A DNA stretch of 64,000 nt from Chlamydiales bacterium (GCA_041395025.1 JAWLBH010000001.1:198410-262409); one strand, 5' to 3'. Positions 43,858-47,528 are shown, numbered from the stretch's first letter. A program made the numbers and translations. The notes: a model not told the origin generated them from the letters alone.

Positions 43858-44102
43858 AAGATATTTATGATATAATTCAATATTTTTTGTTAAAAAACAA
43901 AAATAACTGCATTTATTGCAAATAATTTTTTATTTTATCTTTAAAAAAGGAAATCAAAAATTTGTATTAGTCCCCCACAAGCGCTGTATGCTTACTTTTC
44001 AGCATCCTGGAACAGGCTACCTTTTGTGCACTACTTGTCAAAAATTTCATTCCAAAGACTGTTCTAGCGATCTAAAATGCTTTTCTATAATCTTGTAAAG
44101 AG

Positions 44103-44177
44103 TAGCGGCAGTCGGACTTAAACCAACGGACCCATGGATTATGATTCCGTTGCTCTAACCAACTGAGCTATGCGGCC
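44103..44177 (-). tRNA. Degenerate copy of elongator-type tRNA(CAU), probable pseudo-tRNA
   Basis: Four changes relative to the copy at 46074-46147. They give a C:C mismatch in the acceptor stem, a C:A mismatch in the anticodon stem, an extra base in the variable region, and a T-loop TTTAAGT that loses the conserved C56. Confidence 0.6.
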
Positions 44178-44220
44178 ATGAAGTGGACTTACTGCCTTAA
44201 AAATAAGATCTATAAAGGAT

Positions 44221-44293
44221 TAGCGGGAGAAGGATTCGAACCTTCGACCTTTGGGTTATGAGCCCAACGAGCTAACCACTGCTCCATCCCGCG
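44221..44293 (-). tRNA. Initiator tRNA-fMet (CAU), copy A
   Basis: Minus strand reads CGCGGGATGGAGCAGTGGTTAGCTCGTTGGGCTCATAACCCAAAGGTCGAAGGTTCGAATCCTTCTCCCGCTA. It has an unpaired 1:72 position and three G:C pairs closing the anticodon stem (GGG/CCC), the initiator hallmarks. Identical to the copy at 46191-46263. Confidence 0.85.
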
Positions 44294-44517
44294 GTAAGGA
44301 AAAAATTTTATCATGAATTCCTTTTTTCAACCAAGGGACGAAGTGCATTAAATGTTTTATCCTAAGACCATCCAATTTTAATGTAAATAAACATAGGAGA
44401 TTAATATTCAACAATCTACTGGAATTTATTAGACTCTATGATTGAACGGAAAATTTGATATTCCATGCATCACAGTCATCTGATCTGAAAAATATATGGT
44501 CAGTTAATAAGAGATGG

Positions 44518-45438
44518 CTATTTTTGCATTTCTTGTAGAATTCGAGGGCACTCATTTTTAAATTTTTTAATTAAGTTGCTGTATTCTTCACTTAAAGTAC
44601 CATTTTCTTTTTTTGTATCAAAATCGTACTGTTCCCAAAATATGTATTCTAAGGCACCACCTAGCCATGTCACCATTTCATCCGTCGTATCATCTTCTCT
44701 TAACCCATATACTCTTTCACAAGCTTTGTAATTGCTCGAAAAGTCAAAGCCAAAATAGCGAGCAATATATCCCTGTTCACTCTTTATGATAACAAGATTC
44801 AGAGCATCTTGATAAAACAGGCAATTGTTTTTGGCAAGAACCCGCATGTCTTGTAATAAAGGTTTAATGATGGGAAGCCAACTTTCGATAGCAAACCGAT
44901 CCTTATTGTCTTGGAAATAGGATCTATTTTTCCAACAAGAGCTTTTTGAGTTTTTTCTATCAATAACATACCTACCTGTTTTCGTGAGACTCTTAAATGA
45001 AGGGCAACTATAGGCTGGTAAGGGGTAATTTGAGTCTTTGCTTAAGAAGATATCAACCCATTTAGATCCAACAGTCAGAATACCGAGTTCAGTCAGTCTA
45101 TTAGATATCTGCACTTCTTCATCTACCATACTTCGCCAGGTAGGGAATGTAACCTTCTTATTTGGCAGCATTAAGACTTCATCCTCTGATATTTTCATAG
45201 CTCGCTTAGAGCCTCCACAGCCAACACATTCTCCTATTATGATTTCTTTTTTTTCTGTACCAATCCACACAACACTTTCCTCATCTAATTTGAGAAATTC
45301 AATGCAAGTCTTTTCTGGCACTTCTTGAAGTATAAGTCTAGGCACTACTAGCGGTTTACCACCAATGAGTGTATATGGTTTGGGACCTTGAGGTTTTTTA
45401 AGACTATTCTTATCAAGTTCGAGAGACTGAACTGGCAC
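44518..45438 (-). CDS. C-terminal part of a split Inc-like gene: unknown domain with faint kinase-like motif order
   Basis: 306-aa track ORF that begins at a GTG internal to the family alignment. The frame is open back to a stop at ~45500. Colinear with the decayed paralogue at 42537-43713. Confidence 0.55.
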   Translation of the reverse strand: MPVQSLELDKNSLKKPQGPKPYTLIGGKPLVVPRLILQEVPEKTCIEFLKLDEESVVWIGTEKKEIIIGECVGCGGSKRAMKISEDEVLMLPNKKVTFPTWRSMVDEEVQISNRLTELGILTVGSKWVDIFLSKDSNYPLPAYSCPSFKSLTKTGRYVIDRKNSKSSCWKNRSYFQDNKDRFAIESWLPIIKPLLQDMRVLAKNNCLFYQDALNLVIIKSEQGYIARYFGFDFSSNYKACERVYGLREDDTTDEMVTWLGGALEYIFWEQYDFDTKKENGTLSEEYSNLIKKFKNECPRILQEMQK

Positions 45439-45478
45439 TTCTTCAACAGATCTAGGCTCTAACAGGGGTTTACTACTA

Positions 45479-45745
45479 TCAATGAGTGTATATGGTTTGG
45501 GATCTTGAGGTTTTTATACATTTTATCGAAGCTCCTACTAATGCTATAAGAGTTCCAACAGACAATACTGCCCCCCCTGCTGCAGCGCCAAGATGACCTA
45601 ACCCAAACACACTCAGGATACCTGCGATAGCTGCAATAATCCCTAAAGCTATGGCTATAACCCTAATCTTGATAGAAAGATTGGTCTCTTTACCCTGAGT
45701 AGATTGACAAAATGGAAAACCACAGAGAATTGAAACTTGGCTCAT
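45479..45745 (-). CDS. N-terminal part of the split Inc-like gene (leader + bilobed hydrophobic domain)
   Basis: 88 aa: MSQVSILCGFPFCQSTQGKETNLSIKIRVIAIALGIIAAIAGILSVFGLGHLGAAAGGAVLSVGTLIALVGASIKCIK. It then runs out of frame (TSRSQTIYTH-stop) at an A5 run where the paralogue has A7. Confidence 0.55.
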   Translation of the reverse strand: MSQVSILCGFPFCQSTQGKETNLSIKIRVIAIALGIIAAIAGILSVFGLGHLGAAAGGAVLSVGTLIALVGASIKCIKTSRSQTIYTH

Positions 45746-46073
45746 AGTATACTGAATCTTAGTGAAGAAATTTAAAATAACGTTATTACATTATATTTGA
45801 ATTAAGAAAAATAGTAAAACAAATTCATGATTAATCTAAAATGATTTACAACTGAGCAAAGAGTTCGCTTGATTCTTCTCGAAATCAAGCCAGGCAGGTA
45901 TCGAGTTTATCATCAAAAGGGACTCCAAGAATTTGTTTTTGTTATTCCCACTCAAGCGAGTTGCCTTCTTTTTAACATTTTGACTCAAATGTCTGAAGAC
46001 ATTCTATAACTTCAATTCTCATTAATGCTGAATTGACCACTCAAGAAGCTGCTGGCTGTTACTTGTAAAGAAA

Positions 46074-46147
46074 TAGCGGCAGTCGGACTTGAACCAACGA
46101 CCCACGGATTATGATTCCGTTGCTCTAACCAACTGAGCTATGCCGCC
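46074..46147 (-). tRNA. Elongator-type tRNA with CAU anticodon (tRNA-Met, or tRNA-Ile2 if lysidine-modified)
   Basis: Minus strand reads GGCGGCATAGCTCAGTTGGTTAGAGCAACGGAATCATAATCCGTGGGTCGTTGGTTCAAGTCCGACTGCCGCTA. It folds into a full cloverleaf (7-bp acceptor, GCTC/GAGC D stem, ACGGA/TCCGT anticodon stem, loop ATCATAA, GTTGG/CCGAC T stem). Confidence 0.85.
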
Positions 46148-46190
46148 ATGAAGTGGACTTACTGCCTTAAAAATAAGATCTATAAAGGAT

Positions 46191-46263
46191 TAGCGGGAGA
46201 AGGATTCGAACCTTCGACCTTTGGGTTATGAGCCCAACGAGCTAACCACTGCTCCATCCCGCG
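46191..46263 (-). tRNA. Initiator tRNA-fMet (CAU), copy B
   Basis: Sequence identical to 44221-44293, with the same initiator hallmarks. Confidence 0.85.
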
Positions 46264-46280
46264 GTAAGGAAAAAACTTTA

Positions 46281-47528
46281 TCATGAATTCCTTTTTTCAA
46301 TCAAGGGACGAAGTGCATTAAATGTTTTATCCATTGCACCACGCGATTGATGGAGCAAATGAAGACCATTTTCGCCGATTTTATGACAAAGAGTTGGGTT
46401 AGAAATTAATTTCCTAAGAGTAGGATAAATATCCTTAGGAGTAATCTGGATCCCAGCACTATAAGAGAGCATGAGTTCAACTAAATCAGGTTGAGAATCC
46501 ATATGAGGTCCGAAAAGGACAGGTTTTCCATAAAAACAAGGTTCTAAAATATTATGCCCTCCAATAGCAGGAGTAAAACTTCCTCCTACAAAAGCAAGAT
46601 CAGAAATCTGATAGAAGGCATTGAGAATTCCCATGGCATCGATAAGTAAAATATTGTGACAATCGAGTGTTCCTTGTTCACTCCAAGAAGTATAATTGAG
46701 CGATTCTTTTTTTAATAAATGGGCGACCACCTCAAATCGTTCAGGATGACGAGGAGCAATCAATACCTTTAACTCAGGATAATCTTGCCACAGTTTTTTT
46801 AAGGCGCGAATCCAGATCTCTTCTTCAGGAGGATGAGTAGAGCCTAGTGTGATGACAAAGTGACTATTTAATCCAAGATTTTTACGATTAATGGTTGGAA
46901 TAGTTTTTGTTGAAACATCCAGTTTAATATTCCCTGTGATAGACATTTTATCTAAAGGAATTCCAAGATTATGAATGCGTTCCTGATATAGAGCGCCTTG
47001 AACATAAAAATAATCAATAGGATGAAGCAAGTAGCGAATTAAAAAAGGAAATTTTTGATAACGAGCAAAAGAGCGTTGGGATAATTTTGCATTCACCACT
47101 ACAAGGGTGGCTCCTGATTTTTTTGCAGCATCCTGAAAATGGTACCAAAAATCTGTTTCAGTCAAAATCACAAGATCAGGAGAAAGACGACGAATAATCG
47201 GTCGGATAATATAGGGAAAATCAAAAGGAAGATAGACTTTATAATCCGCCATTCCCTTTTTTCCCTCTTCATGACCACTTTGTGTTGCAGTTGAAAGAAT
47301 GATAAGCGGAGGCTCTGTCAGCGATTTCATCTTCTCAATAAGAGGAGCAATGGCTTTGGTCTCTCCCATTGAGACGGCATGCACCCATACAACTACCCTA
47401 TTCCCTTTTTTAATCTCAGGGAATCCTTGACCTAACTTGGCCTTAACTAGACCGCGATATTTTCTCCATTGACTTAACACTCTAAAGCAAGCAAAAAAAT
47501 GAATACCTAAATTATATAAAAAAATCAT
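46281..47528 (-). CDS. waaA: 3-deoxy-D-manno-octulosonic acid (Kdo) transferase
   Basis: 415 aa. VWVHAVSMGETKAIAPLIEKM is the Kdo-transferase N-domain signature. GT-B C-terminal half. ATGA overlap with leuS. Confidence 0.9.
   Translation of the reverse strand: MIFLYNLGIHFFACFRVLSQWRKYRGLVKAKLGQGFPEIKKGNRVVVWVHAVSMGETKAIAPLIEKMKSLTEPPLIILSTATQSGHEEGKKGMADYKVYLPFDFPYIIRPIIRRLSPDLVILTETDFWYHFQDAAKKSGATLVVVNAKLSQRSFARYQKFPFLIRYLLHPIDYFYVQGALYQERIHNLGIPLDKMSITGNIKLDVSTKTIPTINRKNLGLNSHFVITLGSTHPPEEEIWIRALKKLWQDYPELKVLIAPRHPERFEVVAHLLKKESLNYTSWSEQGTLDCHNILLIDAMGILNAFYQISDLAFVGGSFTPAIGGHNILEPCFYGKPVLFGPHMDSQPDLVELMLSYSAGIQITPKDIYPTLRKLISNPTLCHKIGENGLHLLHQSRGAMDKTFNALRPLIEKRNS

Follow-up and report, generated by a model that had tools for sequence, protein, structure and literature searches.

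Duplicated tRNA and rRNA genes are known to undergo concerted evolution by gene conversion. tRNA genes also host tyrosine-integrase islands; in one example considered here (L014, 7668-7742 and ~12119-12175), the classic attachment (att) repeat measures ~55 nucleotides (nt) and runs from the anticodon loop to ~8 nt beyond the tRNA. Protochlamydia amoebophila UWE25, an environmental chlamydia, harbors the 100-kb island Pam100G, which is bounded by 17-bp direct repeats and has two identical tandem tRNA-Gly genes, 88 nt apart, at its proximal end (PMC548262). Unequal crossing-over and Campbell-type recombination give rise to merodiploid tandem duplications, such as those triggered by transformation in S. 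pneumoniae (PMC3784515), and homology-facilitated illegitimate recombination has also been described (PMC3240628). Tandem clusters of Inc paralogues and lineage-specific expansions of effector families are found in Chlamydiae, such as the Parachlamydiaceae (PMC4209131). The locus described here lies in a 64,000-nt stretch, hereafter the window, of an NCBI metagenome-assembled genome (MAG) of a Chlamydiales bacterium (GCA_041395025.1, JAWLBH010000001.1:198410-262409; a contig of 1.32 Mb, locus tags R3E91_). In this window, two 271-nt direct repeats, each of which contains two tRNA genes and the last part of the Kdo transferase gene waaA, enclose a single Inc-like gene.

Copy A (44092-44362) and copy B (46062-46332) of the repeat, both on the minus strand, are 97.06% identical over 272 columns (BLASTN and pairwise alignment, E = 2e-128). 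The eight differences comprise six substitutions and two 1-nt indels that offset each other in length, and the longest run without a difference is 131 nt. Read along the minus strand, each copy consists of the last 16 codons and the stop codon of waaA, 17 nt, the initiator tRNA-fMet, a 43-nt spacer, a tRNA with the anticodon CAU, and a trailer of ~10 nt. The spacer (44178-44220 and 46148-46190) has zero differences between the copies, though it cannot be aligned between lineages. Copy B is joined to the intact waaA (46281-47528, minus strand; PF04413, E = 6e-49; MEZ5314797.1), whose stop codon lies at 46281-46283. The waaA portion of the repeat is 52 nt long (16 codons, the stop and 1 nt), and in copy A it is an orphan tail (44311-44362, minus strand) with one Ile>Val difference. 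Outside both edges of the block the similarity falls to background at once; one edge is at 44362/44363, and the other is ~10 nt beyond the 3´ end of tRNA(CAU). A preliminary description of this DNA, made from the sequence alone, had reported repeats with about eight differences, an identical spacer, an orphan waaA piece in copy A and an abrupt end of homology at 44362/44363, and the formal alignments reproduce each of these features.

The two copies are 1.7 kb apart and define a repeat unit of 1.97 kb. On the minus strand, each copy is followed by an Inc-like gene, and the resulting order of block, Inc-like gene, block and Inc-like gene is that of head-to-tail units with a single novel joint, as expected of a tandem duplication. 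The joint lies at 44362-44363, where the 3´ flank of the enclosed gene (gene 3, see below) meets the waaA tail, and it is the sole clearly novel joint. Neither a third block nor an attR remnant was found in the window by BLASTN at word size 7, by pattern searches with up to three mismatches or by Smith-Waterman comparison with shuffled nulls. The arrangement resembles Pam100G as a direct-repeat-bounded island of an environmental chlamydia; in contrast, the tRNA-Gly pair of Pam100G brackets no gene, and no fragment of a coding sequence is duplicated there (PMC548262).

All four tRNA genes of the repeats are on the minus strand and were identified with both ARAGORN and Rfam. The initiator tRNA-fMet of copy A (44221-44293) is the same as that of copy B (46191-46263; Rfam 67.7 bits) at 73 of 73 nt, and both carry the initiator hallmarks, namely a 1-72 mismatch (C1 opposite U72) and three G-C pairs (GGG/CCC) beside the anticodon loop. 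The second tRNA, an elongator Met or Ile2 tRNA(CAU), differs between the copies. In copy B (46074-46147) it is intact, scores 67.5 bits in Rfam and is identical to the orthologues of the two closest relatives, L001 and L016. In copy A (44103-44177) it scores 46.6 bits and carries four changes: G4>C, by which the acceptor stem gains a C:C mismatch; G42>A, by which the anticodon stem gains a C:A mismatch; one additional C within the variable loop; and C56>T, which alters the T-loop. Because copy B agrees with four outgroup lineages at all four of these polarizable positions, every change is derived in copy A, and each hits a conserved position of the tRNA. The structure-breaking changes and the drop in score show that the tRNA(CAU) of copy A is a degenerate, decaying gene, which fits a recent redundancy. 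The claim that two tRNAs are duplicated stands as far as each block contains an elongator-type tRNA(CAU) and a tRNA-fMet, but the two copies are not equivalent. The differences between the blocks are also clustered, with five in ~55 nt (the 3´ half of tRNA(CAU) and the trailer) versus three in the other 216 nt (Fisher P ~0.01, for a partition chosen post hoc).

The 70 nt upstream of tRNA-fMet that were duplicated with it contain the sequence TTGATT-18-TGATAAAGT, which follows a TTGnTT-18-TGnTAnnnT pattern. In the window, and in every one of the six relatives inspected (L001, L002, L003, L005, L016 and L017), the TGnTAnnnT part is found 11-12 nt ahead of the tRNA, even in those with a different waaA stop codon; the TTGnTT part is present in the window and in each of these relatives except L003. 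The motif scores under the threshold of the scan and overlaps the conserved C-terminus and stop of waaA, and a scan for promoters and terminators gave counts no higher than those in shuffled sequences. This motif may be the promoter of the tRNA operon, in which case the tRNA-fMet of copy A could still be expressed.

Three Inc-like genes, all on the minus strand, are found beside the repeats: gene 1 (39811-41064), the pseudogene gene 2 (42537-43820) and gene 3 (44518-45745), which is enclosed by the two copies. They are paralogues whose common N-terminal module consists of MxQVS..CG.PF.QS and, after it, a bilobed hydrophobic domain that ends in IKCIK. In genes 1 and 3, residues ~26-75 form two hydrophobic lobes with a dip at residues ~52-56, which agrees with the bilobed domain of ~40-60 residues by which Inc proteins are recognized, and the module is conserved in four homologues (P0003, P0004, P0006 and P0007). 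These features form an Inc-type signature, by which the genes are classed as Inc-like. The 5´ end of gene 2 (43582-43884, ~300 nt) is 84% identical to gene 1 and the remainder is related to gene 3, which indicates that gene 2 is a mosaic. As in the described Inc clusters, adjacent paralogues with a common bilobed module, mosaic recombination and pseudogenization occur together; unlike in those clusters, the three paralogues lie within a decayed tRNA-linked island and a copy of the tRNA operon is interleaved with them.

The genes and the repeats differ widely in divergence. Genes 2 and 3 have a nucleotide identity of 74% in their best 531 nt and of 66% across 1037 ungapped columns, and an amino acid identity of ~49%, compared with a divergence of 3% in the block, and the intergenic parts cannot be aligned. 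Gene 3 is 73% identical in nucleotide and 65% in amino acid sequence to P0002, its orthologue on L008 in the MAG JAFIGI01, which represents a different genus-level lineage and whose waaA is 67% identical to that of the window. In a neighbor-joining analysis, gene 3 pairs with P0002 in 47% of bootstraps and with gene 2, a long-branch pseudogene, in 25%; with the remaining grouping at 21%, the three form a trichotomy without resolution. Because the distance between genes 2 and 3 is about that between gene 3 and P0002, the paralogy is approximately as old as the genus-level split. With ~34% divergence between the genes (~51% in amino acid sequence) and 3% between the blocks, the repeat is placed far later than the gene paralogy, and the 271-nt block is, from these comparisons, by far the youngest layer of a locus that records recombination at no fewer than three time depths, at roughly 30%, 16% and 3% divergence. 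That a paralogous Inc-like gene lies beside each repeat copy (genes 2 and 3), and that these genes are far more diverged than the repeats, a mismatch that needs explanation, had both been noted from inspection and are borne out by the alignment.

The repeats lie at the proximal edge of a lineage-specific insertion of 6.6 kb (39466-46061) between tRNA(CAU) and two conserved genes on the minus strand, an alpha/beta hydrolase (38665-39465) and a pyrophosphate (PPi)-type phosphofructokinase (37073-38668). The same six relatives have a single tRNA pair in the order leuS, waaA, tRNA-fMet and tRNA(CAU), with waaA 52-68% identical. L017 presents an empty site, in which waaA, tRNA-fMet, tRNA(CAU), 386 nt, the hydrolase (58% identical in amino acid sequence to window 38671-39465) and the phosphofructokinase follow in a row; it is an empty site for the whole island at 39.5-46.1 kb and not specifically for the 1.97-kb unit. 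The composition of the island shows no clear anomaly. In L001 and L016, an open reading frame (ORF) that starts 135-165 nt past tRNA(CAU) has homology to the SAM-like domain at the N-terminus of tyrosine integrases. The ORF of L001 is truncated and followed by an IS630 transposase, and that of L016 is frameshifted. The L001 fragment has no profile match in Pfam, PHROGs or NCBIfam and is linked to the family through its homology to P0018, a protein named phage integrase SAM-like that carries PF13102.

A remnant of the same integrase family is present in the window on the minus strand (42285-42494), directly after gene 2 and 1.6 kb beyond copy A, outside the repeats. It comprises ~80 codons with in-frame stops, corresponds to residues ~105-185, and was detected with tblastn (P0018, E = 6.5e-6), in translation and with tblastx to L016 (78% over 27 residues); the truncated or frameshifted copies of L001 and L016 are fuller. 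The single pair with an adjacent integrase in L001 and L016, together with this remnant, shows that the locus is an integration hotspot. The segment at 39.5-46.1 kb is a decayed lineage-specific island at this tRNA(CAU), and the 271-nt duplication lies on the proximal border of this island. A trailer (CTTCTTCACAAG-like; ...CTTYACAAG) is conserved in L016, where integrase-island DNA begins right after it; in the window, the left edge of the repeat falls where this trailer stops. The same family also occurs ~155 nt after a different tRNA(CAU) in L013-L015, beside typical mobile-element cargo. This second tRNA(CAU) type reads GGGGCAAT... in L013, L014 and L015. In L014 the tRNA(CAU) is followed by the integrase, the cargo and then a partial copy of the tRNA; the att repeat formed in this way shows compensatory differences in the T-stem and a further integrase fragment lies beyond it, an arrangement that suggests tandem island accretion.

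The 271-nt repeat is quite possibly what remains of a duplicative insertion, comparatively recent and specific to this lineage, at the tRNA(CAU) end of the waaA/tRNA-fMet/tRNA(CAU) locus, and this is the explanation that we tentatively prefer. The event would comprise one illegitimate joint, which placed the 3´ flank of gene 3 onto waaA 52 nt before the end of that gene, stop included (44362|44363), and one crossover within the shared block; an illegitimate joint at this position is required by every model. The insertion may have proceeded through Campbell-type integration of a circular molecule that carried the block and gene 3, or through unequal or homology-facilitated exchange between two haplotypes that had different islets after the same tRNA pair; both routes would give the same end structure. 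The anatomy of the locus, the relative ages, the hotspot, the integrase remnant and the decay of the tRNA are established by the comparisons above; the route, and the identity of donor and recipient as different haplotypes, we infer from this structure. The flanking Inc-like genes would be older paralogues and not products of the event, after which the redundant distal tRNA(CAU) would decay while the initiator copy stays intact. A left edge of the repeat at the island boundary is expected under such an insertion, because two haplotypes would share sequence only that far. Direct repeats of 271 nt that are 1.7 kb apart should moreover be unstable under homologous recombination, so that their long persistence in a reduced genome is unlikely, and RecA-type recombination between the two copies could now delete or amplify the 1.97-kb unit. 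In mechanistic terms the event would be ordinary, a recombinational duplication at a tRNA/island hotspot followed by decay. It resembles the merodiploid duplications, in which homologous exchange and a novel joint likewise generate a head-to-tail duplication with direct repeats that are unstable in the presence of RecA. Published merodiploids, however, use pre-existing insertion sequence (IS) or rRNA repeats and span 100-900 kb, whereas the unit here is 2 kb long and its repeat would itself have been made by the event.

Several observations weigh against such an insertion or limit its reconstruction. Zero differences in 131 nt has P ~0.02 at a uniform divergence of 3%, and sustained gene conversion would likewise yield sharp block edges and an identical core of 131 nt. 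The cluster of differences in the 3´ half of tRNA(CAU) and the trailer may point to an origin from mixed sources or to a conversion tract instead of simple uniform decay; it could reflect such a tract or the crossover point. Scans of genome and metagenome contigs and a search of 5.8 billion proteins returned no sister strain, the best non-self waaA being 68% identical, so neither the donor haplotype nor the pre-insertion state of the species can be demonstrated. Finally, the sequence is a MAG assembly.

A single tandem duplication of the whole unit (Inc gene, tRNA pair and waaA tail), as put forward in the preliminary description, agrees with the head-to-tail layout and the single joint, but one such event is not sufficient. 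The divergences are unequal (3% versus 34%), the sequence next to the block cannot be aligned, gene 2 is a mosaic, and gene 3 is nearer to P0002 than to gene 2, so that the paralogues do not come out as each other's closest relatives. The main rival to the recent insertion retains the duplication of the waaA tail, tRNA pair and Inc-like gene but makes it ancient, with the genes diverging while the 271-nt block was homogenized by gene conversion anchored on the tRNAs. This would explain the sharp edges and the identical core, and it draws on the near-equal head-to-tail spacing (1970 nt between the blocks and 1950-1954 nt between gene positions) and on the recombination between paralogues that gene 2 attests at this locus. 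We nevertheless consider it rather unlikely: the direct repeats would have had to escape deletion over a genus-level divergence time, the relatives all have a single pair, which calls for loss or absence throughout, and the unit starts (42393... versus 44363...) retain no residual similarity. Conversion also failed to rescue the tRNA(CAU) of copy A within the block. A highly identical block within diverged flanks is indeed typical of concerted evolution; unlike there, one tRNA in this block has not been kept intact, and the non-functional parts, the orphan coding tail and the spacer, equal the tRNA in conservation.

Ordinary integration, with the repeats as attL and attR of a small element that carries gene 3, is improbable as well, even though the locus shares much with tRNA-linked integrase islands such as that of L014: the same hotspot at the 3´ end of tRNA(CAU), the same integrase family (here as a remnant within the window), an empty site in a relative, and island DNA directly after the tRNA trailer, where the left edge of the repeat also falls. 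The preliminary description had held that relatives with a single tRNA pair and an integrase at this site would favor integration, and had proposed a search for such an integrase; the search succeeded in the window and after the same tRNA(CAU) in L001 and L016, but the 271-nt repeat is not the att duplication of this family. It was rightly said to be longer than a typical integrase att site, since it exceeds the ~55 nt of L014 by ~215 nt in the 5´ direction, through the second tRNA into a coding sequence, and comprises two complete tRNAs and the 70 nt upstream, 52 nt of which are coding sequence. The repeats also bracket a single Inc-like gene and no integrase, the remnant lying beyond gene 2, and no similarity to the attL arm sequences of the integrase elements remains after either tRNA copy in the window. 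An assembly artefact, in which two strain haplotypes (block with gene 3, and block with gene 2) were concatenated, likewise seems a doubtful explanation. The source is a MAG, the structure resembles two alternative haplotypes of one island boundary in tandem, and no genome that shares the duplication, and thus no independent confirmation, was found in the collections searched. However, the joint at 44362/44363 is outside shared sequence, so an error of graph or overlap would not make it; the copies differ at eight sites, there are no Ns, and the surrounding long ORFs are intact. The distance from the joint to the first variant (31 nt, the size of a k-mer) was considered as a sign of an artefact and rejected, because 3% divergence predicts 31 nt. 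There is, lastly, little to recommend a selected duplication, in which a second initiator tRNA gene with its own promoter would be kept for its usefulness, although it would be compatible with the other explanations. The identity of the tRNA-fMet copies and the putative promoter that accompanies both are in its favor, but zero differences in 73 nt are not significant at 3% divergence (P = 0.11), the promoter motif has the weaknesses given above, and the partner tRNA of the same operon is decaying.

Beyond their N-terminal modules, the three Inc-like genes differ in structure. Gene 1 fuses the Inc-type module to a HemK/PrmC-like S-adenosylmethionine (SAM) methyltransferase domain, with an NPPY motif and a match to TIGR03534 (E = 5e-20) that is below the cutoff of that model, and is a candidate membrane-anchored effector methyltransferase. 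Gene 2 has at least two frameshifts and one in-frame stop. Gene 3 encodes a bilobed hydrophobic N-terminus and a conserved C-domain of ~300 residues and has one frameshift, its sole disruption, at a T5 run (45511-45515) that corresponds to T7 in gene 2 (43575-43581); this homopolymer difference may stem from an error in sequencing, from phase variation or from an early pseudogenizing mutation. Its 306-residue ORF (44518-45438) corresponds to MEZ5314795.1. Genes 2 and 3 both contain an internal tandem duplication in the linker that separates the membrane module from the C-domain: ~84 nt at a spacing of 117 nt in gene 3 (45315-45398 and 45432-45515, ~82% identical), and 43323-43384 and 43467-43528 at a spacing of 144 nt in gene 2.

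No Pfam or NCBIfam model matches the C-domain of genes 2 and 3. The motifs conserved within it, in 44518-45438 and the homologues P0002-P0008, include GxGGxKRA, MVDEEVQIS, D..N and RYFGFDFS. An AlphaFold model of the domain (pLDDT 80, pTM 0.79) gave weak Foldseek matches (E > 0.01), mostly to protein-kinase-like folds, namely APH(2''), Legionella Lpg2603, YabT and HipT. Eight homologues of the gene 3 type were found, all on chlamydial or unnamed metagenomic contigs; those elsewhere lie in unrelated neighborhoods with no tRNA nearby. In L008 (JAFIGI010000042.1, positions 1-200), a palindromic element of ~170 nt with perfect arms, which resembles a miniature inverted-repeat transposable element, stands in place of the 5´ end of P0002 at the contig end.

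Other ORFs of the region have less distinctive features. An 80-residue ORF on the plus strand of the decayed island (41904-42146) has two hydrophobic segments and no convincing family, with a BofA match (E = 0.0025) below cutoff. Two minus-strand ORFs of 1122 and 834 residues (33567-36935 and 50095-52599), which have hydrophobic segments near the N-terminus and lack a solid Pfam match, lie on either side of the conserved block from the phosphofructokinase gene to leuS; in the stretch that corresponds to the 834-residue ORF, no similarity is seen in L001 or L002. In L002, a 466-residue protein (12425-13825) with a RhoGAP domain (PF00620, E = 2e-9) is encoded in the variable region that follows the tRNA pair and is a eukaryote-like effector candidate.

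For annotation, one of the four "tRNA-Met" calls in the repeats is a pseudogene in decay, and tRNA counts are inflated by the duplicate pair. A more far-reaching idea, which we regard as very doubtful, is that the 271-nt block of the tRNA operon acts as a long portable recombination site, so that units of block and effector gene would leave the chromosome as circles and enter it again at the tRNA(CAU) hotspot, through recombination that is either homologous or assisted by an integrase. If this were true, Inc-type effector genes and initiator-tRNA dosage could be swapped, stacked and amplified in the manner of cassettes between strains of environmental chlamydiae. The findings do not challenge current understanding, and their significance is modest. 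They document the accumulation and decay of host-interaction (Inc-like) genes at a tRNA-linked hotspot in a little-known chlamydial lineage that is represented by a single MAG, and they reveal a tyrosine-integrase family that occurs repeatedly beside tRNA(CAU) genes in environmental chlamydiae. The direct repeats predict that copy-number or excision variants of the 1.97-kb unit would occur in this organism.

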